14,044 bases of DNA, taken from positions 1 through 14,044 of the forward strand of contig CAYVGZ010000040.1 of the NCBI GenBank assembly GCA_964450845.1, read 5' to 3'. Below, piece after piece: positions 701 to 14,044 of the stretch. Numbering within the stretch: the first letter of the stretch is position 1; each line of letters starts with the position of its first letter. The notes beneath the pieces are model-generated. The model worked only from the letters and a program-made list of their open reading frames with translations. It made no database searches and had not been told where the DNA came from. The stretch is from an uncultured Candidatus Bathyarchaeia archaeon (GTDB lineage Archaea; Thermoproteota; Bathyarchaeia; Bathyarchaeales; Bathycorpusculaceae). The position numbers were made by a program, and so were the translations under genes.

Positions 701-1180
701 TTGAAGTTAAAGGAAGGCGTTCAATCGTGGTTAATGGGTTCTCAAAATGACCCCATTGCAAAAACACTCGTAAAAAATAGCCATTTGACAAAAACGCAGC
801 TAGAAACACTGCTTATTGACGTTTTATCTGAAAATATCGCAGGCAAACCACTAAAATACGATGAAAAAGCCAAATTAAGGTTAACAAAGGCAAAAATAAG
901 CCGCGGAGCCTTCAATAGGACTTTAAAACAAGCAAAAGAAAACATCACAAAATCGATTTATACCATACTACTCTTAGGGTACTTAGGGATCTTCGAAACT
1001 ACAACTCTTGACCCTTATCTAGAAATAGCCAACAAACTACAAGAATACATAGAAGCCTACAAGAACATGCCAAATAAAAGTGAAGAACTAGACGAACATC
1101 TGAAAATCATAGAAATGGTAAGAGAAGAGCTTGAAACAAGCCTAAAACAGCTCTCAAACTCTTCCCAGGGCGTTGTGTGA
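701..1180 (+). CDS. Conserved hypothetical protein with a probable HTH (Tfx/sigma-region-4-like), all-helical
   Basis: ORF 665..1180. Start more likely TTG 701 (or ATG 734) because a TATA-like TTTAAAAG at 639-646 would put the TSS past 665. Segment HLTKTQLETL...YDEKAKLR...ISRGAFNRTLKQAKENITKSIYTILLLGYLG resembles an HTH followed by a long helix. Confidence 0.8.
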   Translation: MKLKEGVQSWLMGSQNDPIAKTLVKNSHLTKTQLETLLIDVLSENIAGKPLKYDEKAKLRLTKAKISRGAFNRTLKQAKENITKSIYTILLLGYLGIFETTTLDPYLEIANKLQEYIEAYKNMPNKSEELDEHLKIIEMVREELETSLKQLSNSSQGVV

Positions 1181-1463
1181 CGTCACAAATCACATCAAAA
1201 GGTGAGCATTCGGCAGCAACAATAAACACACGCACAGCAACCAGTATAAAAAACGCTGAAAATCCAAAAACAGCCGAAAAATGAGGTTTTGGTGCATGCC
1301 AGTTGCTGTTTTAAGGTAATATGATGTTCTTTTTAAAGTGTGATGTGTGACATCATAGACTCCTTAAACAATGCAAATCTCCATAATCTTTATATCTCTT
1401 ATAGTAAAATTGTGATTTGTGATGCAACATGGGTGTATCGTTCGTAATCACATGTAAATCACA
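1176..1463. repeat. Cluster of three 19-bp repeats (consensus TGTGATNTGTGAYRYMAYA) plus a fourth variant site
   Basis: Site A (-) 1176-1194 TGTGATTTGTGACGTCACA. Site B (+) 1339-1357 TGTGATGTGTGACATCATA. Site C (+) 1411-1429 TGTGATTTGTGATGCAACA. Site D (-) 1446-1463 TGTGATTTACATGTGATT. Nine TGTGA/TCACA pentamers in about 290 bp. Confidence 0.85.
1389..1396 (+). promoter_or_regulatory. Archaeal TATA box for the membrane-anchored wHTH gene
   Basis: TTTATATC about 80 bp upstream of the start codon. The implied TSS (~1420) lies inside repeat site C. Confidence 0.55.
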
Positions 1464-1475
1464 GAGGTGCACTGT

Positions 1476-2189
1476 TTGGATGAGGTTATACTAATTCTTG
1501 CGGGTGTTTTGCTTGCCGTAACCGTTGGCGCCGCAATTAAGTATTATAAACAACTTGGAAGGGCTCAGCGAGAGTATGAAAAGGCTGAACAAGTTGTCGA
1601 GGACATTGTTTTGAGTTTTAATAGACAGATTAGGCAGGAAGCTAGTAAGTTAGAGCTTGTTGCATACAAGGTTGAGGCAGTTTCTTCAAAAAGTGATAAA
1701 GCTTTGATGAAGGCGGAAGAAGCAGATAAGAAATTGCTGTCGTTAGAAGGCAAAATTGACGTTACCTTAGGGGACAGAGAAAAGGTGTTAATGAGACTGG
1801 ATGAAATTGACAAAAAGGTGCGTGATACTGTTGTATCACAAGAGGTATTAACTGCCAAAATATCTGCGATCGAGGAACAATCCAGACAGCTTTCAATGTT
1901 TCCCGAAGCAAAAATTGAAGCAGTAATGCCCATAAAAAGAGAGAAAGTTTTAGCTCCCTTAACAGAGACCGAGCTATCTGTTCTGGAAATACTGTCTTTG
2001 GAAGGCCCTAAAACGGCGCCCGAAATTAAAGAAAAAATCAAGCTCAGCCGAGAGCACACGGCTAGGTTGATGAAAAAGCTTTACGAAAGTGGTTATCTGG
2101 AAAGAGAAACCAGCAAAATTCCTTTTAAGTATAGTGTTAAGAAAGAAATGGAAAAACTCTTGAGAAAAGCGGAAAGCGAAGCAACATAG
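1476..2189 (+). CDS. Single-pass membrane protein: N-terminal TM anchor, long coiled coil, C-terminal winged HTH (MarR-like)
   Basis: TM VILILAGVLLAVTVGAAI followed by basic KYYKQLGR. About 125 aa of E/K/L-rich heptad region. C-terminal LTETELSVLEILSLEGPKTAPEIKEKIKLSREHTARLMKKLYESGYLERETSKIPFKYSV is a wHTH. TTG 1476 has GAGGTG 6 nt upstream; the ORF track start is GTG 1467. Confidence 0.9.
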   Translation: MDEVILILAGVLLAVTVGAAIKYYKQLGRAQREYEKAEQVVEDIVLSFNRQIRQEASKLELVAYKVEAVSSKSDKALMKAEEADKKLLSLEGKIDVTLGDREKVLMRLDEIDKKVRDTVVSQEVLTAKISAIEEQSRQLSMFPEAKIEAVMPIKREKVLAPLTETELSVLEILSLEGPKTAPEIKEKIKLSREHTARLMKKLYESGYLERETSKIPFKYSVKKEMEKLLRKAESEAT

Positions 2190-2193
2190 CATA

Positions 2194-3738
2194 CTACGAA
2201 GAAGGAGGCTCCTGTTCGTTCAACCGTTTAAGTCGTTTCTCCATCTCTGAAAGGCTCTTTGATTCTGAAAGCCCATAGTCTTCCTTTCTCCTCTTGTCCA
2301 AGTAGTCTGGATAATGTGTGACCTTTATTGGTACAGCAAACCTGATTTTCGGCTCAGATATGAGCAATGCTTCGCCAACATCGAGCATTTTTATTTCCGT
2401 GTCACTATACTCTAAATAGGGCGTGTTTTCGGTCAGATATATTCTGTCCTTTCGCAACTCTGTCTTCATAATGACCTTGGTCCACAGTTCAGCGAAAACG
2501 TCAAAGTTAATCCTTGAAGGACGTGGTGTTACAGCGTTGAGTCCAACTCGGTATTTGCGGTATGTTAGGGCGATGTCTGAAAATATGGTTCTAGGCTTGT
2601 TTGGGTCAAGAAACTCGTGCGCCTCTTCAAGTGTTATGAGAAGCGTGGGCAGATTCTTCCATTCTTCATAATTTTCTTCCCACATGCATTTATAATGGTT
2701 TGCAACCGTTGAAGCCGTGAGGCAGGTGATTTTGTTTTGCTCCTCGGAGCTTATTCCTGAGATGTCTATAAGGCATGTTATTCCCTTACATACGTTCTGG
2801 GCAACGCTGTCAATGAAGCTGTAATCGGAAGCTGGGAAAATGTCGTGGGAAAGTGATGACAATTTAAGCATTAGGGCTTCAATCACGTGTTTCATCTTGT
2901 AGTCTGCGAGATGCCCTACCCCGGCGTGCCCTTCTGCCCCATAAACCTCTCTAGTTTCCTGAATCCAACTCTTGCCCAGCCTTTTGTAAAGTTTTCGAGC
3001 AAGCCGAAATTGAGGAAGACCTATGTCAGGAAACAGAGTAATAAGCCTCTCCGGGGTGATTGTGAATAAGCCCACAGTCATTTTTCCATCACGTGCGGAA
3101 TAATACTGGACCTTGCTGTGGAACAGTGGATGATCTTTTAGGCCTTTTTGCGGTTTAATCCCCTTGCCTTCAAGAAGCTGGCCGGCGAAGTCGAAAATGA
3201 GAGCCACTGTTTTAGGGCTGTTGTCAATGCTTTGTGCATTGAGAATTAGTTCGGTGTTTGTTTTCCCCGAGCCAGTCATTCCAAACATGCCCATCATTAG
3301 TGGTATGGCTTCAATATTTATGCCCGCTGACCCCAATAGTTGCTCTCCAGAGCGGAGGCATCCAACTTCTAGTTCCCCTGAGAGTTTGAGGATGGAACAG
3401 TCTTCTTCGCTAGCTGTGTACACTTTGTCTTTATAGTTTGGGTTGAAGGTTGGGGAGCGTCCTTTGCCAGCTCTCTTCTCTAAGAAGAGAATAGCTTCGA
3501 CGCTCCTGTAAGCTGAATACGGTCCGAAGGCTTCTTTGCCTTCTGCTTCACGCAGCTGCTCAATTGTGTCAAGTGTGGAGCTGCTCTCGGCGTTAACAAC
3601 CCTTGCGTAGAAGCCCCTCTCACCTGAATCTATTCGAACAATTTGTCCAAAAGAAAGATTGATTTCCTTGTTGAGAAAGAAAGATACGGAGTCTCCCTTC
3701 GTTCCACACACAAACCCTATAGGTTCAGAACTATTCAC
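2194..3738 (-). CDS. herA: HerA-like FtsK/HerA superfamily ATPase (HAS barrel + DUF87), divergent
   Basis: N-terminal HAS-barrel-like PIGFVCGT...FGQIVRI...YARVVN, Walker A GMTGSGKT, Walker B LLITLEEAHEF, YRKYRVGL arginine-finger region. Likely start GTG 3738, overlapping the nurA stop and preceded by GGAGTGGTGGA; the ORF track start is 3774. Confidence 0.88.
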   Translation of the reverse strand: MNSSEPIGFVCGTKGDSVSFFLNKEINLSFGQIVRIDSGERGFYARVVNAESSSTLDTIEQLREAEGKEAFGPYSAYRSVEAILFLEKRAGKGRSPTFNPNYKDKVYTASEEDCSILKLSGELEVGCLRSGEQLLGSAGINIEAIPLMMGMFGMTGSGKTNTELILNAQSIDNSPKTVALIFDFAGQLLEGKGIKPQKGLKDHPLFHSKVQYYSARDGKMTVGLFTITPERLITLFPDIGLPQFRLARKLYKRLGKSWIQETREVYGAEGHAGVGHLADYKMKHVIEALMLKLSSLSHDIFPASDYSFIDSVAQNVCKGITCLIDISGISSEEQNKITCLTASTVANHYKCMWEENYEEWKNLPTLLITLEEAHEFLDPNKPRTIFSDIALTYRKYRVGLNAVTPRPSRINFDVFAELWTKVIMKTELRKDRIYLTENTPYLEYSDTEIKMLDVGEALLISEPKIRFAVPIKVTHYPDYLDKRRKEDYGLSESKSLSEMEKRLKRLNEQEPPSS

Positions 3739-4744
3739 TCCACCACTCCCACTCGAACGCATGCTTAATTCCATGAAGCTCGTCAGCGAAGCTACATGAA
3801 AATTCTTCTCGGCGAAGTATTTCTAATAAGCCACTCTGGGCGAGTACATTCTCGACTTGATCGTGGTAAGAAAGAAGCATCGCATCGGAGGGTGCAGAGA
3901 AGTCGTGGGCAAGCCAAAGGGGGACAGGATATCCAAGACATCGGGGGTCTTCGGCTACTGCAGTCAAAGGAGAAAGGGTCTCGCTTACTTGTTGGTCTGT
4001 TAAGTATTCCATTATGTCACAACGAAAAACGCGGGAACTTCCTTCGCACAACCTAACAAGAGATATATCTCCATACAAGCTTTTGTCCTTGTCAGCTTCT
4101 CTGATTGGATGACAAACCCACGTATCATAAGGAGAGAGTATACTCGTAGTAGCTATTAGGTCTCTTCCTTTTTCATCATGAAGTGAGGGAGAGTTTTTGC
4201 TAACAGCGAGAAGGGTGATCCGATCTTTTTCACATTTCTCATAAAGTGCCACTCGGAATTTTCTTTCACCGCCGAAGTATCCGCCACCATCAAGTAAGAG
4301 ATAATTACTACGAGGATTAGTATGCTCGTAGTAGAAAAGGCTAGTTTTGTTCTGAAGAAGGTTAAGTGCCATTTGACTTTCTAACTCAATTCTTACATCT
4401 GTCAGAAAGTTACTACGAGTACGTGCATTACCAACTACAGTGCATATTCTTTCCTGATAGCCCCAATCAATATTGCGCTCTTTAACTGAGGCATACGCTA
4501 CTCGCATTAGGTAGATTCCCCAGTTGTTTGCCCTCTTGAGTGTTCTTGTCGAACAATCAACGGCAACGAACCCTCCTAGAAATTCGCTGATTTTTTTCAA
4601 GGGCTTTATTAAAGCCGCATCTGGTTTGACCGATATCATTGGCTCTTCTTTCACTTCAACTGCTCCAGCAACTCTTCCTTTGTCTATGTAAAACTTGAGT
4701 TTCTTCTCCATTTCAGCAAAGTCTGTCTTGATATTGCTGCTCAT
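3731..4744 (-). CDS. nurA: NurA-domain nuclease (RNase H-like fold)
   Basis: VAVDCS (first catalytic D), IELESQMA (E), LLLDGG (D) and C-terminal LGYPVPLWLAH typical of NurA. GGAGG RBS at 4751-4755. Directly upstream of the HerA-like gene. Confidence 0.85.
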   Translation of the reverse strand: MSSNIKTDFAEMEKKLKFYIDKGRVAGAVEVKEEPMISVKPDAALIKPLKKISEFLGGFVAVDCSTRTLKRANNWGIYLMRVAYASVKERNIDWGYQERICTVVGNARTRSNFLTDVRIELESQMALNLLQNKTSLFYYEHTNPRSNYLLLDGGGYFGGERKFRVALYEKCEKDRITLLAVSKNSPSLHDEKGRDLIATTSILSPYDTWVCHPIREADKDKSLYGDISLVRLCEGSSRVFRCDIMEYLTDQQVSETLSPLTAVAEDPRCLGYPVPLWLAHDFSAPSDAMLLSYHDQVENVLAQSGLLEILRREEFSCSFADELHGIKHAFEWEWWSE

Positions 4745-4862
4745 TTACTTTGCCTCCAACGCCATGGCTAAAACGTGAAATATTTTGTTGCTAGTAGTTT
4801 TTGCATGTTTGCTTTTTATCTTTTGTGAAACTTAATCTACACTGCTTATGCACATGTAGAGG

Positions 4863-5291
4863 TCAGGGTATTTCCTGTTTAACTATAGCTTGCGGAAAAC
4901 TTGCCAGTTTGTATTTCAAGCGATTAGAAGCCCCAGCTTTCACTAGTACTCCTTTGTTCGCCATTCTGGCAAAATACGTGGCCACGGTGCTGAGACTTAT
5001 CGGTTCTTTGAATTCCTGTTCGTAGGCTGATTGGATCTCTCTTGAAGAGAACCAGACCATGGGAAAGTGTTTCTGGATCAGCATGCGAACTTTTTCGTAT
5101 TTAGAGACCCAATTGCCTGCAACCATTGGATTGCCTTCAGAGTTTCCGGCGCTACTTGACACTCCGCCCAACAATTCTACCAAATCCAAAAGGCGAACAG
5201 CCTTTTCCCGAGTTATTTGCCCTTCAAAGGACACAGTATATTTATTACCTTCACTATCGAACAGCTCAACACGCATCTTTCTTGCGGGCAT
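4863..5291 (-). CDS. Origin-adjacent two-domain protein: small N-terminal beta-alpha domain plus C-terminal winged HTH
   Basis: MPARKMRVELFDSEGNKYTVSFEGQITREKAVRLLDLVELL, then a linker, then KVRMLIQKHFPMVWFSSREIQSAYEQEFKEPISLSTVATYFARMANKGVLVKAG..RLKYKL (wHTH pattern). Transcribed divergently from cdc6 across the origin. Confidence 0.85.
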   Translation of the reverse strand: MPARKMRVELFDSEGNKYTVSFEGQITREKAVRLLDLVELLGGVSSSAGNSEGNPMVAGNWVSKYEKVRMLIQKHFPMVWFSSREIQSAYEQEFKEPISLSTVATYFARMANKGVLVKAGASNRLKYKLASFPQAIVKQEIP

Positions 5292-5487
5292 CAGCAATCT
5301 ACACCGTAGCTGGTGTTCACACTTTACAGTTCACAAGTTATAGCTATTACGGTGAAAAAGTAATAAGTAAAAACGTCATAGCAAGCCTCAAAGAAGAAAA
5401 CACCAAAAAATTGCAGAGGTTTTTACTTTACAACCGTCACAGTTTTTCTAAACAGGAAATAAGCAAAAGACAGCCATTATGTTGGTA

Positions 5488-5509
5488 TCTCCAGTAGAAG
5501 GGAAGGGGT
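5488..5509 (+). promoter_or_regulatory. ORB (origin recognition box)
   Basis: TCTCCAGTAGAAGGGAAGGGGT matches the TTCCAGTGGAAAC-G-string ORB pattern. Confidence 0.75.
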
Positions 5510-5756
5510 GGCTTTTTCACAGAAAAAAGACATAAAGAAGTTAATACCGAGTAAAACAAAACCCAAAAAGACGCAGTCTCAAGTTAACTTCACATAATCT
5601 TCTCAACCGTGTGAAATTATCTAACAGATTGGAAAAAGGTATTTTTCCACTAACCTTCGAAACTAGCAAAGGAGCCTTTAAGTCTAAATAAAAACAGAAA
5701 GTAAAGAAGCAAAAACGTAGCTTAAAATTATTGAATAAGAAAAAAAGAAAGCGTCA

Positions 5757-5777
5757 CCCCTTAGTTTCCAATGGAAC
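5757..5777 (-). promoter_or_regulatory. Canonical ORB, left of the DUE
   Basis: Reverse complement GTTCCATTGGAAACTAAGGGG: near-consensus dyad plus G-string. Confidence 0.9.
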
Positions 5778-5799
5778 AGGGTAAACTTTTGCCGTTATC

Positions 5800-5925
5800 G
5801 ATTATTTTAGAGAGTATTCATCTAAAAAATTTTACAAAAATTATTATAATACATTTTTTATTCTTAGTTTTTAGAGTATAATTTAATTTTTAAGTTAATG
5901 CTATAACTATTCTTCATCCAAACAG
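5800..5925. other. AT-rich DNA unwinding element (DUE)
   Basis: 5821-5900 has only 9 G/C in 80 nt and lies between two inversely oriented ORBs. Confidence 0.8.
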
Positions 5926-5927
5926 TT

Positions 5928-5948
5928 TTCTACAGGAAATTTGGGGGT
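5928..5948 (+). promoter_or_regulatory. ORB, right of the DUE
   Basis: TTCTACAGGAAATTTGGGGGT: degenerate dyad plus G5 string, inverted relative to the 5757-5777 ORB. Confidence 0.7.
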
Positions 5949-6090
5949 GTGGCTATGGTCCTTAAGCTTTTTGTCTTCAGGCTTTCGGTTTTCTTTTAGT
6001 TTTCTTGCGCCACTAATTTAGTTTTTTGTATGGCAGAACTTATTTTCTGAAGAAAAAACAAAGCGTTACCTTTGCTTAAGAGGAATTACA

Positions 6091-7341
6091 ATGAGCGATA
6101 CTAATGTGCTTGACGATGTGTTCAAAAAATCTTTTAACAACATAAATATTTTTCAGGATAGAGAGGTTCTACGGCACGACTATCTGCCAGATACGTTACC
6201 GCACCGAGATGAACAGATTAGGCAGATCGGCGAAACTATGGCGCCCGTTCTAAAAGGAGCGAGAGGTTCTAACGTTTTTATTTATGGAAAAACTGGAACT
6301 GGAAAGACAGCTGTAACAAAACATGTGCTCAGCCATCTTGAGGTTAAAGCAAAGGAATTTAATGCACCTGTTAAGTTCTGTTACGTGAACTGCCGTTTAG
6401 CAGGAACTGAGTATCGCGTTTTTGCTAGTTTATGTCAAAGAATAGGCAAATCTGTTCCTTTTACAGGGCTATCTGTTGGGGAAGTTTTTGACAGATTCCA
6501 AGCAGGGTTGGATGACTCCAAGATTATATTTATCATAGTTTTGGACGAAATCGACGCTTTGATCAAAGCACATGGTGATAACCTTCTCTATGAACTAACA
6601 AGAATAAATGAAACCTTGCACGAGAGCAAGGTATCTCTCACTGGCATATCCAATGACCTACGGCTGAAAGAGCTTCTTGATCCTCGAGTTTTTAGTTCAC
6701 TTAGTGAAGAAGAGATTGTTTTTAGTCCCTACGATGCTAGTGAATTAAAAAATATCCTTTTTGAGCGTGGCAAATTGGCGTTCCATGACGGTGCTTTGTC
6801 TGATGGCGCTTTGAGTATTTGTGCGGCTTTAGCCGCTGCGGAGCATGGTGATGCGAGACGGGCATTGGATTTGCTACGAGTTGCTGGTGAAGTTGCTGAG
6901 CGAAAAGGTGCGAGCACTGTAATTGAGGAACATGTTCGGGAGGCAGAGAAACACATTGAACACAACCGTGTTATTGAGGCTCTCCAAAATTTGCCTTTAC
7001 ACTCAAAACTCGTGGTCTTAAGTATTCACCACCTAAGAGAAGCAGATGCCAACCGGGTCATTACTGGCGAGATTTATGAAGTTTATAGTGAGCTTTGTGG
7101 AGAATTAGGCGTCACTCCATTAACCCAACGTCGGTCAAGCACGCTGGTGAATGAACTTGATTCTATGGGACTGTTGAATTCGAAAATCGTAAGCATGGGG
7201 AGGTATGGACGTACGAAGAAGATTAGGTTGGAGATAACGCGCACTCTTATTAGAGATGTGTTCGCTAATGACAGCAGGCTTGGACGTTTGATTGTTTATG
7301 CGCCGAAATGCCTTTCAAAACCTGCAAATAGTAGGAGTTGA
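6091..7341 (+). CDS. cdc6: Orc1/Cdc6 replication initiator
   Basis: FQDREVLRHDYLPDTLPHRDEQI, Walker A GKTGTGKT, YVNCR, Walker B IIVLDEID, GDARRALDLLR, C-terminal wH domain ending GRYGRTKKI. Confidence 0.98.
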   Translation: MSDTNVLDDVFKKSFNNINIFQDREVLRHDYLPDTLPHRDEQIRQIGETMAPVLKGARGSNVFIYGKTGTGKTAVTKHVLSHLEVKAKEFNAPVKFCYVNCRLAGTEYRVFASLCQRIGKSVPFTGLSVGEVFDRFQAGLDDSKIIFIIVLDEIDALIKAHGDNLLYELTRINETLHESKVSLTGISNDLRLKELLDPRVFSSLSEEEIVFSPYDASELKNILFERGKLAFHDGALSDGALSICAALAAAEHGDARRALDLLRVAGEVAERKGASTVIEEHVREAEKHIEHNRVIEALQNLPLHSKLVVLSIHHLREADANRVITGEIYEVYSELCGELGVTPLTQRRSSTLVNELDSMGLLNSKIVSMGRYGRTKKIRLEITRTLIRDVFANDSRLGRLIVYAPKCLSKPANSRS

Positions 7342-7855
7342 GGACGGAAGTTTTCAGAAGGGCACAACACGAAGAGCCATCCTTGCAGTTGTTTTGTTTA
7401 AAGGATTAAAAATTGAGAATATTAAAATCACGAAAATAGCTGTCGACGGTCTAGATGCAACCGAGAAGCTCGTGGAAGTCTTGAACAAGTGGAAGTTTGC
7501 TGCTGTCATGCTTGCTAGCGTATCTTTTGCGGGCTTCAACATAATTGATCCAACTGCAATTCGTAAAAAATTCGAGCAACCAGTTATTATAGTAACGCGA
7601 ACAAAACCTCACAATGAGGCAGTTCATAGCGCTCTTAAAATACACTTTAAAGATTGGAGAATACGTTGGAAAGTGTTTGAGAAATCAGGTTCTTTTCACA
7701 AAGTGGCTGTCTTAGCTGATGAACCACCAGTCTATGTTGAAACAATAGGTGCTGACATCAAGTGGGCTTGTAACCTTATTCAATCCTTGTCTGTTTGTTG
7801 CAGGGTTCCCGAACCAATACGTGTTGCACGATTGATCGCCCGCGGGCTATCCTAA
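7298..7855 (+). CDS. DUF99 family endonuclease V-like protein
   Basis: IVGVEDGSF...AVDGLDATEKL...SFAGFNIID...PVIIV...VPEPIRVARLIARG match the DUF99 pattern. Overlaps the cdc6 3' end by 44 nt from ATG 7298. Confidence 0.85.
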   Translation: MRRNAFQNLQIVGVEDGSFQKGTTRRAILAVVLFKGLKIENIKITKIAVDGLDATEKLVEVLNKWKFAAVMLASVSFAGFNIIDPTAIRKKFEQPVIIVTRTKPHNEAVHSALKIHFKDWRIRWKVFEKSGSFHKVAVLADEPPVYVETIGADIKWACNLIQSLSVCCRVPEPIRVARLIARGLS

Positions 7856-9408
7856 ATAAACGGAACAACAGTAACCTCTAACGTTTGAAGGTTTACCACA
7901 GGAACTTTCCCTGCCGTTGGCACAAAACCAAGCCTTCGCATGTACTCTGTTTGTTCCTGCCATCCGCCTGAGTTTACAATTAACACTCCACGATAATTGC
8001 TGTATCCCAACGCGTGTATATGACCAGCATGAAATATGTCGGGAACACGCTCAATAACCAAGGGATCTCTGCTTTCTGGCGACAACATTGTTTTTCCGCC
8101 ATATACCGGTGCAAGATGGCGGCATTGCAACAACAGTTTCATTGCCTTTTCTGGATGGTTGGGGTCCATGCCTGGAACCGTTGAGATAACATCATCTAAG
8201 CTGCGACCATGATCTAATAATACTTCAACGCCGTGGAGACTTATGAGGCATGGGTTTCCAAGAGAATAGACCTTTCTTGACTCTTGCAACGTTTCAAGGA
8301 AAGTGTTTGATATTGGGGGCTGAGGCGAGGCTTTTCTTGGAGCGTCATGGTTTCCAGGGATGATTACCACTTCTATATAGTCGGGAATCTGCTCGATATA
8401 TTTTGCAGCAAGCTTGTATTGTCCATAAATGTCTTTGATTGCAAGCTCTTTGACCTGATTTGGGTAAACTCCTATTCCGTCTACAATGTCTCCAGCTATT
8501 AGAACATATTTTACATGGCTTGCTATTTCCCTAATTTTTTCGTCGCCATATTTGCCGTTAAGCCACAAAATGAAGCGGTTGAAAGCTTCTCTCTGAAATT
8601 TTGTGCTCCCCACATGCATGTCTGAGGTGAGCACAGCATACACTGGAATCGGAGCTTTATGTTGAGGCTTTTGTGCGACATCTGGAAAGATTATGTCTTC
8701 AGCGATTAGCAAGTTGCTCCTCGTTTTTACGACACTTAGACAGACAACTTGGTCAAGCAAGAGTAGATGTGCTTTTTCTTGGAGTTCTGCCGAGGAGTTC
8801 TGAGAAACAAGCACTAAGGTGCTTGCATGCAAATCCTCAACAGTCAGCAGTATTTTCTGTTTTGCTTCTCTCCTTTCCGTTATCATCCCGATTATTTTGA
8901 GCTTCGTGTTTGCTGGAGCCTTTAAAGCGTCGATAATAGATGCTGCGCTTTTGACGTCCATTCTTTGTCTTAGTAGCTTTTCTATTCGCTTGAACCTATC
9001 TCGGAAATATTCTAGATAATCCTCTATAGTTCCGCTTGAACTTAGTTTGGCGGCTGGGTCATCAATTATCTTGATGTTTGATTCAACCACTTCTGCATAG
9101 GGACGGAACTGTATTTTTCCCTCTGTTATGCGTATTTCTGGTAGTGTTTGGGGTGGTTCCTCTAATAATTGAGTGGGAGTCTCCCTTTTTGTTTCTGACG
9201 GTTCTACGAGGTTTTCCAAGAAGCTTCTGTCAATAAATAACGGTTTTTCTTTTAAGTCGTCGATTTTATGTATTGCCTTGCTCATTATTTCTGTTGGGTC
9301 TTGTGTACTGGCCAATATGCTTAGGAATTCAAAGGCTTCTTTGTTTATTTGGTATCCTGCTGAGATTGTCAATTCCACGGCTTTTTGTAGTTTTCCAGCG
9401 TCGCTCAT
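7852..9408 (-). CDS. polB: DNA polymerase II (PolD) small subunit DP1, proofreading exonuclease
   Basis: OB-fold region and calcineurin-like phosphoesterase motifs SDMHVGS, AGDIVDG, PGNHD, HG, FHAGHIH, NSG. polB here is the archaeal name for DP1, not a family B polymerase. Confidence 0.97.
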   Translation of the reverse strand: MSDAGKLQKAVELTISAGYQINKEAFEFLSILASTQDPTEIMSKAIHKIDDLKEKPLFIDRSFLENLVEPSETKRETPTQLLEEPPQTLPEIRITEGKIQFRPYAEVVESNIKIIDDPAAKLSSSGTIEDYLEYFRDRFKRIEKLLRQRMDVKSAASIIDALKAPANTKLKIIGMITERREAKQKILLTVEDLHASTLVLVSQNSSAELQEKAHLLLLDQVVCLSVVKTRSNLLIAEDIIFPDVAQKPQHKAPIPVYAVLTSDMHVGSTKFQREAFNRFILWLNGKYGDEKIREIASHVKYVLIAGDIVDGIGVYPNQVKELAIKDIYGQYKLAAKYIEQIPDYIEVVIIPGNHDAPRKASPQPPISNTFLETLQESRKVYSLGNPCLISLHGVEVLLDHGRSLDDVISTVPGMDPNHPEKAMKLLLQCRHLAPVYGGKTMLSPESRDPLVIERVPDIFHAGHIHALGYSNYRGVLIVNSGGWQEQTEYMRRLGFVPTAGKVPVVNLQTLEVTVVPFI

Positions 9409-10083: not shown

Positions 10084-11067
10084 ATGGGTGAATTACGCAA
10101 GATTCAGCGCACTCCAGGTGGAACCTTCTTTGTTTGCTTGCCTAAGCCTTGGGCTGAACGCTATGGTTTGAAACGAGGCTCCGTGGTAGCAGTTACTGAA
10201 GCCAGCGATGGTAAACTCTTAATAGACACAGAGTATGCTGTTGAGCCTTCTCCCCGCACCATTACTTTAAAGCCTGGTCCCTATCTGAGTCGTGAAATCG
10301 TAGGAAAGTATCTGCTCGGCTTCGACATTATCACTGTTGAGGCGAAGAATCGTATTAGCTTTGAGGTTCGGGATACCGTTAAGACTGCTGTCAGTCGGTT
10401 AATTGGATTGGAAATCGTTGAGGAAGATTATTCACGTATTGTTATGCAGTGTTTGTTAGAGCCTTCAAGCTTTCCTCCTGAAAAGATTCTTCGCCGCGGC
10501 TACATAATCGCTGCTGGTATGCACCACGATGTTGTTAATGCATTAGTAGATGGAGACATAAACTTGGCTAAAAGCATCATAGCCCGCGACGACGAAGTTA
10601 ACAGACTTCACTTTCTTTTAGTTCGCATTCTCCGCACCATAATCCAAAATCCCAGCCTAACCGAGAAACTTGGTGTCCGTCCAATCGAATGCTTAGACTA
10701 CCGACTTGTAGCAAGCTTGGTGGAAGCTATTGGTGACGAATGCGTACGAGTGGCGATGAAAACGATTGAGTTAAACGGCACAAAACTAGGTGAAGATTTA
10801 AAGAAATCGCTTGTCGACTTTCACTTGGTTTGCTTTGAAGCCCACGAAAATGCTCTAAAAGCCTTTTTAGCTGGCGACACAGGTTTAGCTGAAAACGTGC
10901 GCCTTATTCGAGAAAAAGTTGAAAAAACGTCTTTAAACATCGAAAAAATTGCAAAAATGCAGTCTCTTGACGCTTTGCCCCACATTCTAGCAGTAACTTC
11001 AATTCTGAGGCAAATTTATGAACACAGCGTAGACATAGCAGACTTGGTGATGCCGAAAAAACTGTAA
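10084..11067 (+). CDS. phoU: Archaeal phosphate-uptake regulator: AbrB/SpoVT DNA-binding domain plus two PhoU domains
   Basis: RKIQRTPGGTFFVCLPKPWAERYGLKRGS (AbrB), YLLGFDII, and PhoU helices with RDDEVNRLHFL, LVEAIGD and IYEHSVDIAD. Confidence 0.9.
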   Translation: MGELRKIQRTPGGTFFVCLPKPWAERYGLKRGSVVAVTEASDGKLLIDTEYAVEPSPRTITLKPGPYLSREIVGKYLLGFDIITVEAKNRISFEVRDTVKTAVSRLIGLEIVEEDYSRIVMQCLLEPSSFPPEKILRRGYIIAAGMHHDVVNALVDGDINLAKSIIARDDEVNRLHFLLVRILRTIIQNPSLTEKLGVRPIECLDYRLVASLVEAIGDECVRVAMKTIELNGTKLGEDLKKSLVDFHLVCFEAHENALKAFLAGDTGLAENVRLIREKVEKTSLNIEKIAKMQSLDALPHILAVTSILRQIYEHSVDIADLVMPKKL

Positions 11068-11077
11068 ATTGCCCCTT

Positions 11078-12298
11078 TTAGAAGGGGAGTTTACCTATTT
11101 TTTGTGGTGCTTTGGCCAATGAAACATGTTCACTCATTCTTAATTCAATGGTATACTGTACCTCGCCACTTATTTGACAATCAGATTCGATTGTGATACT
11201 TTCACCGTAAATGTTTTCTGCATATGCTCCGCTTCTTAGAAAAATCCTTTTTCCATAGATATTTTCTGCGCGCGCATCTCGTCCAATAATGACTTGTTCA
11301 GCCTTTACAGATCCGCGAACTTCACCTCTTCTTCCTATTTCAATAAACCTCGCAGTCACGCCGTCAACAGTTGTTATTGATCCACCCACTTCTACACTCT
11401 CTTCAACAGTGGCTTTTCTTGAACGTATTACGCCGCCGACTTCGATGTTTTTTGTTGCCAAATCTCCGTCGATTTCTGCTTTACCTCCCACTTCTAGGTT
11501 TCCAGAAAGTTTTAACGACCCGCCGATTTCTACTCTTCCTCCTACGTCCATTTCGTCACCTTCGCCTGAACCTGTTATCTCTACTCTTCCTCCTACGTCA
11601 ATTTCTCCAAACTCTAAATCTCCTTCAACCCGAAATGAGCCTCCTACATCTATTTTTCCGCCCTTGTTTTTACCATTAAGCCGAACGGTTCCACCAACAT
11701 CTATGCTTTCAAATTCTAGTGGGCTATTTGATTCAAAACTTCCTCCTACGTCAATTTCTTGGATTGTCCCGCCGGTAACTTTTGCTGCCCCTCCTACATC
11801 CAATTTTGTTATGTTCACTTTAGACTCGATTGAAACACTGCCTCCCACATCGATTTTCTCTGCCTTCGTTTCTCCTTTGGCTTTAAAGCTTCCGCCAACA
11901 TCTATGTTTTCGGCTTTTACATTCCCATCAACTTTTACGCTTCCGCCAACATCAACTTCCTCAACTGTCAGATCCTTGTTTACGTATAGGGCTTCGTCGA
12001 CATCTATGTGCCGTGCAGTCATGTTCCCGTACACTTCTAGGCGCCCTTCTTCGACTTCAACTCTGTTTGTTATTTGTAGGTCTCCATGGATTGTCACGTT
12101 ATCCTCTGCTTCTAGGTTTTCCGCCAAAACGTTGCACTCAAAGGTGTTGCCTCCTTCGCAGTAAATGGTTCCAGAAACTTTCACTGTTGGCGGTTTACCT
12201 GTTCCGTTTATTGTTGAATGTCTGCCTACTAGTAAGTCTCCTTCAACATGGTCTATTGTTGTTGTGCTTCCTGGTGAAGTGGATGTTTTGCTATTCAT
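11078..12298 (-). CDS. Bactofilin-like (polymer-forming cytoskeletal) beta-helix repeat protein, about 406 aa
   Basis: Twelve ~17-aa repeats centred on [DE]VGG with alternating V/I/G. Start ATG 12298 has a GGAGG RBS; the ORF track start is 12349. Confidence 0.75.
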   Translation of the reverse strand: MNSKTSTSPGSTTTIDHVEGDLLVGRHSTINGTGKPPTVKVSGTIYCEGGNTFECNVLAENLEAEDNVTIHGDLQITNRVEVEEGRLEVYGNMTARHIDVDEALYVNKDLTVEEVDVGGSVKVDGNVKAENIDVGGSFKAKGETKAEKIDVGGSVSIESKVNITKLDVGGAAKVTGGTIQEIDVGGSFESNSPLEFESIDVGGTVRLNGKNKGGKIDVGGSFRVEGDLEFGEIDVGGRVEITGSGEGDEMDVGGRVEIGGSLKLSGNLEVGGKAEIDGDLATKNIEVGGVIRSRKATVEESVEVGGSITTVDGVTARFIEIGRRGEVRGSVKAEQVIIGRDARAENIYGKRIFLRSGAYAENIYGESITIESDCQISGEVQYTIELRMSEHVSLAKAPQKIGKLPF

Positions 12299-12368
12299 AC
12301 AATATCCTCCATTTGAGTCTATATTCACTGATTTAAAAGGGAAACTCACGTTTTGTGACTACTCTTTG

Positions 12369-13916: not shown

Positions 13917-14044
13917 GCCGGGGTGGCGGAGTGGTTATCGCGCTGGCCTCGAGATCGGCAGTCAAAATCAAGAGGCTGGATAGAAGACAAGTAAGCCAGT
14001 GGGCCTTTGGGCTCGCAGGGGTTCGAATCCCTTCCCCGGCGCCA
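13917..14044 (+). tRNA. tRNA-Ser(CGA) with a 40-nt intron at canonical 37/38 (13954-13993) and encoded CCA
   Basis: Acceptor GCCGGGG/CCCCGGC, discriminator G, CCA. Anticodon stem CTGGC/GCCAG with CT-CGA-G|A loop. Long variable arm GGGCC/GGCTC. T arm AGGGG-TTCGAAT-CCCTT. Bulge-helix-bulge at the exon-intron junctions. Confidence 0.95.

Follow-up and report, generated by a model that had tools for sequence, protein, structure and literature searches.

Three deeply conserved candidate DNA-binding proteins beside the replication origin of Bathyarchaeia and related archaea: putative self-repressors with a possible membrane tether and origin accessory

In Bacillus subtilis, RacA combines DNA binding and membrane binding in one protein, recognises origin-proximal sites and acts without a ParA of its own. 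RicO of Staphylococcus aureus (bioRxiv 10.64898/2026.03.06.710092) and RocS of Streptococcus pneumoniae (PMC11500499) are origin-to-membrane anchors of the same type: each is a single polypeptide with a membrane-binding element and a sequence-specific DNA-binding domain whose sites are origin-proximal, and neither depends on a dedicated ParA for holding DNA at the envelope. The reviews of archaeal segregation that we consulted name only SegAB and ParA-like proteins, with nothing specific for Thaumarchaeota or Bathyarchaeia, and how origins are positioned, licensed and segregated in archaea outside the Sulfolobales is largely unknown. Here we analyse a stretch of 14,044 nucleotides (nt) from an uncultured Bathyarchaeia archaeon (the window; it is the entire 14-kb contig CAYVGZ010000040.1 of assembly GCA_964450845.1, which is 1.64 Mb long and 93% complete), in which three genes, here called P1, P2 and P5, stand beside a replication origin (oriC) bearing origin recognition boxes (ORBs) and the initiator gene orc1/cdc6. 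P2 resembles RicO, RocS and RacA in its predicted make-up, with a winged helix–turn–helix (wHTH) domain, a stalk and a membrane anchor in one protein, and with predicted binding sites near the origin. It has no detectable homology to them and belongs to another domain of life. Its anchor is a predicted N-terminal transmembrane helix, whereas the bacterial anchors reach the membrane by an amphipathic helix at the C terminus or through a partner; the putative P2 sites are clustered at the P2 promoter, whereas theirs are many and dispersed; and P2 is known from sequence alone.

Two further kinds of described system invite comparison. At oriC1 of the Sulfolobales, origin function requires the non-initiator protein UBP, which binds ucm, a short motif situated between ORB boxes (Dhanaraju et al. 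2025, PMC12141716); UBP is a 111-amino-acid (aa) beta-rich nucleoid protein with hundreds of sites (PMC12141716). The role that we suggest for P5 would be similar, that of a non-initiator protein on a motif (TGTGAA) among ORB boxes, although P5 is a wHTH protein with a genome-unique array and UBP is a non-wHTH protein with hundreds of sites. The trio shares with SegAB of Sulfolobus and with plasmid centromeres of the ParR/parC type (PMC5120986) the presence of repeats upstream of an operon, which could serve as both operator and centromere-like site, and an archaea-specific binder that is also site-specific. Unlike those systems, it has no linked SegA/ParA ATPase, and P1, P2 and P5 gave no ParB-type or ribbon–helix–helix match in Pfam or NCBIfam, SegB not having been compared directly.

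The trio is common to Bathyarchaeia, Aigarchaeota/Caldarchaeales and Thaumarchaeota; it is deeply conserved, single-copy and located at an ORB-bearing origin in most lineages of the three classes. In the genome studied here, three arrays of short repeats, one per gene between the TATA box and the start codon, occur nowhere else. We tentatively propose, at somewhat less than an even chance, that P1, P2 and P5 are sequence-specific DNA-binding proteins that have flanked the origin as a set since ancient times and would act as self-repressors and, in the case of P5 and P2, as an origin accessory and a membrane tether, respectively. In public records, among them those of Nitrosocosmicus franklandus and Caldarchaeum subterraneum, each of the three is annotated as hypothetical, and full-text literature searches returned no description of the genes.

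Conservation was followed at several depths. In the close-relative set (40 relatives of the same family or order, 41 genomes with the window's own), P1, P2 and P5 were each found in 34–36 of the 41 genomes, almost always as one match per genome, and stood beside the main cdc6 wherever contigs allow, and the order P1–P2–[HerA–NurA]–P5–oriC–cdc6 recurs in 35 same-order loci. Linkage at this depth proves little, because the whole neighbourhood, an aminotransferase gene included, is collinear. A profile of P1 found the gene in 257 of the 301 Bathyarchaeia genomes searched and, phylum-wide, in 175 of 401. Of 20 loci from other Bathyarchaeia families, 16 have P1 within 10 kb of cdc6, usually as P1–P2–P5–oriC–cdc6; in other classes, the trio stands beside cdc6 in 12 of 32 loci, including those of Nitrosopumilaceae, Nitrososphaeraceae (Nitrosocosmicus) and the families f43, f49, f50 and f56. 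Every Nitrosopumilaceae locus with full flanks (52/52) has the arrangement cdc6(−) P5(+) P2(−) P1(−). The gap between P5 and cdc6 measures 470–830 bp in 29 of the 46 genomes that have P5 in an even sample of the phylum (70 genomes), spanning nine families. Control neighbours (the aminotransferase, DUF429, bactofilin-like, HerA and NurA genes) lose their position at the depth of other families or classes, and only the replication gene DP1 keeps it. Among the sampled lineages, P5 was present only in Bathyarchaeia, Aigarchaeota and Thaumarchaeota; in seven families (f40, f47, f48 and f52–f55), which are presumed to be Thermoprotei-like, the genomes sampled yielded neither P1 nor P5.

These results bear out much of the original prediction, which was made from the letters of the window and proposed an undescribed module for positioning or segregating the origin. 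All the features that it listed are present where it placed them or a few bases away. Its tentative statement that homologues of the three proteins also sit near cdc6 in Nitrososphaerota proved right for Nitrosopumilaceae and Nitrosocosmicus, and the profile and synteny comparison that it suggested found the homologues linked to cdc6 in the other families and classes, as counted above. With the trio and the repeat array conserved and origin-linked from Bathyarchaeia to Nitrososphaerota, the proposed lineage-wide system, rather than a local accident, is supported. The partition or anchoring logic that it saw in the locus held in part: the conserved trio, the array and the anchor architecture of P2 stood, and the DNA motor and a ParA-type partner did not.

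The position of the trio does not always follow that of the initiator gene. In family f44, represented by two complete genomes, 190 kb separate cdc6 from a convergent P2/P5 pair, which still lies beside a non-coding stretch of about 1 kb (L183:5104-6178 and L185:4100-5166) with two or three inverted ORB-like boxes, which occur nowhere else in those 10-kb loci. Judging from f44, this suggests that P5 may follow the origin DNA and not the cdc6 gene. P5 is also at the origin in family f62, with P1 124 kb away, and flanks the origin alone in family f45. As a separate observation, the stretch in f44 may be an origin that no longer has an adjacent initiator gene.

In the window, the 800-bp non-coding region between P5 and orc1/cdc6 contains oriC. 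Its core (5488–5950) has ORB boxes at 5490(+), 5766(−) and 5929(+), which are inverted, carry a TTCCA-N-TGGAA core (TCCA-N-GGAA) and a G-string, and are arranged around an AT-rich unwinding region at about 5780–5925. The sequence between the boxes has a GC content of 31–35% and is the most AT-rich part of the window; a loose ORB pattern has 12 matches in the 1.64-Mb assembly, 3 of them inside these 440 bp. The orc1/cdc6 gene (6091–7341, + strand; NCBIfam ORC1 model, E = 1e-151; Pfam Cdc6_C and Cdc6_lid) starts 140 bp from the third box, and the initiator gene thus adjoins the origin. Judged by its boxes, composition and neighbour, 5490–5950 is a genuine ORB-type oriC beside orc1/cdc6, as had been predicted.

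P2 (1476–2189, + strand; 237 aa, TTG start) is predicted to consist of a single-pass membrane anchor (residues ~3–21), a helical stalk of ~125 aa and a MarR-type wHTH domain (residues 165–224). It matches the Pfam MarR family (PF01047) with E = 2.6e-8 and 34.1 bits against a cut-off of 24.6, over residues 165–216. The match covers the wHTH alone; the remainder of P2 is anchor and stalk, unlike a soluble dimeric regulator of ~150 aa with N- and C-terminal dimerisation helices. The N-terminal hydrophobic segment comprises 19 residues with a Kyte–Doolittle value of 2.5, and, because only 2 residues precede it and a K/R-rich stretch follows, the anchor is predicted to be N-out/C-in and to lack an extracellular domain. 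The stalk (~125 residues) looks like a coiled-coil-like helical segment. An N-terminal hydrophobic segment of this kind, with 0–15 residues before it and a K/R-rich stretch after it, is present in P2 of 20 of 24 lineage representatives, and conservation of the signature SREHTARLMKKLYExGYVER extends from Bathyarchaeia into Nitrosopumilaceae, the recognition-helix region being nearly invariant. The match above cut-off and the recurrence of the architecture agree with the membrane-anchored, coiled-coil wHTH protein that had been predicted here.

The 295-bp spacer between P1 and P2 holds the GTGAY array (1176–1466), in which ~290 bp hold 9 TGTGA/TCACA pentamers, compared with 1.6 per kb over the genome as a whole; no other 300-bp window of the assembly has at least 7. 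A matrix derived from orthologous 22-nt sites scores 29–32 bits at three places in the spacer, compared with 17 at best elsewhere in the genome. Site A (1176–1194, − strand; score 31.9) consists of the palindrome GTGACGTCAC and an ATCACA unit and overlaps the stop codon of P1, and site B (1337–1358, + strand; score 29.4) reads TGTGATGTGTGACATCAT. Between B and the next site lies an element resembling a TFB-recognition element and TATA box (BRE/TATA; 1381–1395, + strand; CCATAATCTTTATAT), conserved as the block ACCATAAnCtTTAAAT in 18 aligned spacers; by its likeness to the archaeal consensus it is the probable P2 promoter. Site C (1411–1429, + strand; TGTGATTTGTGATGCAACA; score 28.9) is ~15 bp downstream of this TATA box, over the expected transcription start, and site D (1447–1464, − strand), ATCAC-N6-AATCACAG, is a variant with 11-bp spacing that abuts the ribosome-binding site (RBS) GAGGTG. 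When the spacers of 18 same-order genomes were aligned, sites A–D and the TATA-like block emerged as sharp footprints and the rest was unconserved. The cluster of oriented repeats that had been reported at this place is therefore real and unique in the genome, but it has no single orientation, the sites being mixed (A−, B+, C+, D−). A GTGAT array recurs at the P2 promoter in Nitrosopumilaceae, and a GTGAY array accompanies P2 in family f44, which lacks P1. With sites on and around the P2 TATA box, transcription-start region and RBS, the repeats are, at minimum, putative promoter operators.

Two minor points concern the same spacer and its repeats. The palindrome GTGAYRTCAC has three copies in the genome, two of them on this contig, and a perfect GTGACGTCAC palindrome also occurs at 74–83, inside the aminotransferase gene and 1.1 kb from site A. 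A non-coding RNA in the P1–P2 spacer was considered and ruled out: an Rfam scan gave no match, and the sequence between the sites is unconserved.

P5 (4863–5291, − strand; 142 aa) is transcribed away from oriC and is predicted to have a beta-beta-alpha domain at the N terminus, then a disordered linker and, at the C terminus, a BlaI-like wHTH. The AlphaFold model and Foldseek assign its C-terminal domain to a generic, canonical wHTH fold, and the Pfam Penicillinase_R (BlaI/MecI) model matches 23 of 38 P5 family members (best E = 2.6e-8), the window's own P5 not reaching E 0.01; the wHTH protein predicted to abut the origin is thus supported by its fold and by matches of its relatives. The TTCACA/TGTGAA array (5316–5615, with units at 5316, 5330, 5516, 5589 and 5610) covers the P5 promoter (TATA-like element at 5338–5349) and interleaves with ORB1. 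Two units, TTCACA, separate the TATA-like element from the start codon, and the others are beside ORB1 and between ORB1 and ORB2. The array is the sole 350-bp window of the assembly with at least 5 copies of the hexamer and is conserved site for site in 18 relatives. Nitrosopumilaceae have a TGTTAAC array at the equivalent place, likewise interleaved with ORBs; the origin-side word differs between the classes (TGTGAA versus TGTTAAC), and the recognition helix of P5 differs too. Two other identities for P5 were rejected. It is not a detached winged helix of Cdc6 (hhalign probability 0.6%), nor is it a homologue of UBP, which is a beta-rich protein of 111 aa and which P5 would resemble in function only.

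P1 (701–1180, + strand; 159 aa, TTG start) is an all-alpha protein with a probable sigma-70 region-4-like helix–turn–helix (HTH) and a C-terminal helical hairpin. P1 itself has no Pfam or NCBIfam match. Its AlphaFold model is confident and all-alpha (pLDDT 88), and 1 of 42 family members matches Sigma70_r4 (PF04545; E = 4e-5). Foldseek gave only weak partial matches (3vep_D and 8hnp_B), including one to region 4 of SigD, with no structural match below E 0.8, and VIA-align covered the C-terminal helical hairpin only, at a Z score of ~8 that is typical of helical chance matches. The family has a conserved segment, LTxxQxE...SRGAFNRTLxQAxxN. The uncharacterised gene is present as predicted, and the region-4-like HTH is weakly suggested by the single Sigma70_r4 match, the SigD fold match and this segment. 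The P1 promoter (635–672, + strand) has the TATA-like sequence CTTTAAAA followed by an operator-like direct repeat, GTATAC-N6-GTATCC (655–672), which is a footprint in 18 same-order relatives and has no second exact (12/12) match in the 1.64-Mb assembly; in Nitrosopumilaceae, the P1 promoter has a TATACA-N4-TGTATA element at the equivalent position. Both P1 and P2 have TTG starts in this genome, aligned with the starts of their orthologues, where P1 orthologues mostly have TTG and several P2 orthologues have ATG.

All three arrays are phylogenetic footprints within unconserved sequence. Scans of the whole assembly for a regulon with position weight matrices, palindromes and clusters of hexamers gave only chance matches in coding regions. 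From position and co-occurrence we infer the pairing of P2 with the GTGAY array, P1 with GTATAC and P5 with the origin-side array. On this basis, each protein would bind the array at its own promoter and repress itself. The wHTH of P5 would occupy the TGTGAA sites that, in the left half of oriC, are interspersed with Orc1 boxes, and P5 could be an origin accessory factor that either modulates initiator loading or firing or links P5 expression to the state of the origin. P2, as a predicted integral membrane protein, would bind the GTGAY array around its own promoter, 1.5–4.5 kb from the unwinding region; integral in the membrane and bound at its own array, it would hold origin-proximal DNA at the membrane through its stalk, and so be a self-limiting tether that is active whenever it is bound to the array. 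P1 would bind the GTATAC repeats at its own promoter and may regulate P2 and P5 or bridge to them. Of the mechanisms considered, an accessory P5 and a tethering P2 would be the most economical. The HerA and NurA genes would have no part in this mechanism and would be an order-confined insertion. Read from sequence, the layout guarantees little more than autoregulation, and a tether or origin-accessory role, in segregation or positioning, is what we infer beyond it. That P2 and the GTGAY array are an archaeal origin-to-membrane tether and P5 a second non-Orc factor inside oriC, making up with P1 the first origin positioning and control system to be described for these three lineages, strikes us as rather unlikely, although well above negligible.

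A serious possibility, still short of what we would call probable, is that P1, P2 and P5 are ordinary autoregulated transcription factors that reach trans targets through short or degenerate sites, their place being due to inherited synteny or to a benefit of gene dosage or cell-cycle expression; P2 would then be a membrane-tethered regulator that is inactive until proteolysis or a membrane signal frees it. P2 and P5 belong to the wHTH types of the MarR/Lrs14 and BlaI/MecI repressors, likewise with sites over their own promoters, and the sites cover the TATA-to-start region of each gene in the classical layout of a repressor. Several observations count against a tether and origin accessory. 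The site layout is what simple autorepression would predict; the assignment of proteins to arrays is drawn from position and co-occurrence alone; and motif scans would miss isolated short sites in other parts of the genome. Four lineages among the 24 representatives have a P2 with no membrane anchor: these orthologues (L086-L089, L091 and L092, from families f43, f49, f41 and f63; start codons as predicted) comprise coiled coil and wHTH only, and such soluble forms suit plain regulators. The cluster also persists away from a recognisable origin, lying 15–32 kb from cdc6 in families f51 and f60, and in Caldarchaeum, where P1–P2 is 14.5 kb from cdc6 and P5 is ~500 kb away, and some Bathyarchaeia families have no P2 or P5 at the origin. 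A scan of the detached clusters (f51, f60 and f62) for ORBs gave no match, which is uninformative because the same pattern misses the ORBs of Nitrosopumilus. Since gene order near origins is generally stable, inherited synteny can explain part of the pattern.

On the other side, plain regulation leaves several features of the locus unaccounted for. In the 93%-complete genome, the scans found no further full-length site of the three motifs, and a regulator with no regulon needs another reason to stay single-copy across three classes. The TGTGAA sites reach past the P5 promoter, some next to ORB boxes and some between them; where cdc6 has moved (f44), P2 and P5 are still found with ORB-bearing DNA; and the P2 anchor has no sensor domain. 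These same features, together with the lack of a detectable regulon, argue for action of the proteins on this locus and not for ordinary regulation in trans. P2 and P5 differ from the MarR/Lrs14 and BlaI/MecI repressors also in build, P2 by its predicted anchor and long stalk and P5 by a novel beta-beta-alpha domain, as well as in being fixed at the origin with no regulon detectable. Were the proteins only self-regulating, it would still be puzzling why three regulon-less regulators stay at the origin across three classes, and the role of a motif array interleaved with ORB boxes would still have to be explained.

The original prediction also placed a DNA motor in the module, an ATPase of FtsK/HerA type with a NurA nuclease. 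The ATPase gene (2194–3774, − strand) encodes a divergent hexameric ATPase of the HerA type: it matches Pfam DUF87 (PF01935) with 35 bits against a cut-off of 23.2; its profile finds Sulfolobus solfataricus HerA (4d2i) in the Protein Data Bank (PDB) with E = 1.6e-15; and the motifs GMTGSGKT and LLITLEEAH (Walker A/B) are invariant in 14 orthologues. NCBIfam HerA models score 40–56 bits against cut-offs of 600–970, with no equivalog-level match. By these matches the ATPase is a genuine but divergent HerA, and the FtsK part of the assignment falls. Its neighbour (3731–4744, − strand) is probably a NurA-like nuclease; the 44-nt overlap between the two genes suggests an operon. For the nuclease, the Pfam score of 18.3 bits is below the cut-off of 21 and a search of the sequence against the PDB gave nothing at E ≤ 1, whereas all 30 of its atlas neighbours by language-model features are NurA clusters (~0.95). 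The family has invariant VDCS and LLDGG motifs, which we take to resemble those of NurA. The pair is like the canonical archaeal HerA–NurA complex, which resects DNA ends together with Mre11–Rad50, in its HerA fold, Walker motifs and overlapping NurA-like gene, and unlike it in being highly divergent, in having no mre11 or rad50 in the window, in being a second copy, and in being confined to one order, where it is decaying.

That HerA and NurA drive a full partition machine, with the repeats as centromere and P1, P2 and P5 as binders and tether, is very improbable. All the parts are adjacent in the window, the genome-unique GTGAY array at 1176–1466 is a centromere-like repeat cluster next to the genes, and HerA orthologues are 67–87% identical where retained. 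The pair itself, however, lies between P2 and P5 in only 14 of 35 same-order loci, with fragments in two more and one cut by a contig end, and was seen beside the trio in none of 52 loci around P1 outside the window's order. In a relative of the same genus (L013), herA (7847–9406) has a TGA codon at Trp365 and nurA (6859–7875) a TAA codon at a conserved Ser, the two genes being otherwise 94% and 73% identical, respectively, to those of the window; these two independent nonsense codons indicate early pseudogenisation or sequencing errors in a metagenome-assembled genome. A second HerA/NurA pair is at the end of contig 7 of this genome. By this distribution, HerA/NurA is an order-confined insertion under loss and no conserved motor of the module, and that element of the original prediction is contradicted. 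A partition ATPase is likewise missing from the neighbourhood. Pfam and NCBIfam scans found no ParA, SegA or ParB among the proteins of the window, as had been noted; ParA/MinD-like ATPases are encoded on other contigs of the genome; and no ParA-type gene stands beside the trio among the genes annotated in ~90 related loci, which were scanned only with the window's own gene profiles.

We give even less weight to an integrated mobile element or defence island beside the origin. HerA/NurA-like pairs do occur in defence systems, the PADLOC HerA matches here being weak and generic (best E 2.5e-11), and the distribution of the pair within the order is patchy. The trio, by contrast, is single-copy in most genomes searched at the level of order, class and phylum and keeps a fixed position, which fits vertical inheritance; the scanned proteins include no integrase, no tRNA flanks the region (no repeat search for element ends having been made), and composition is unremarkable. 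A mobile or defence origin could apply to the HerA/NurA pair alone.

The trio provides three deeply conserved candidates with defined DNA sites for a process that is poorly understood in these archaea. The same genes and sites are found in Nitrosopumilus and Nitrososphaeraceae, which have cultured members, and binding, localisation and replication-profile experiments are therefore feasible; the anchor-less P2 orthologues are natural soluble variants of use for testing the tether idea. If the proposal were true, the old idea of a membrane-attached replicon would be realised here by entirely new protein families.

The remaining genes of the window were inventoried from six-frame open reading frames with Pfam and NCBIfam scans. 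At its left end is an aminotransferase fragment (3–551, − strand). To the right of orc1/cdc6 follow, in order, genes for Endo_dU, the PolD small subunit, DUF429, a PhoU-family protein, a bactofilin-like protein and uridine phosphorylase, and a tRNA. Endo_dU and orc1/cdc6 share ~50 nt (7292–7341) at the 3′ end of the latter, and Endo_dU is present or absent there among relatives. The PhoU-domain protein (10084–11067) has an N-terminal AbrB/MazE-like domain, and its gene is kept near the origin in most Bathyarchaeia loci and, more weakly, in Nitrosocosmicus. The bactofilin-like gene (11078–12349, − strand) encodes a repeat protein of 423 aa that shows strong skew in GC and AT and has weak hexapeptide and bactofilin-like matches only; it is found near the origin in close relatives only. 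At the right end, the tRNA match (13917–14041) covers 125 bp against a 71-position model, and the tRNA probably contains an intron.

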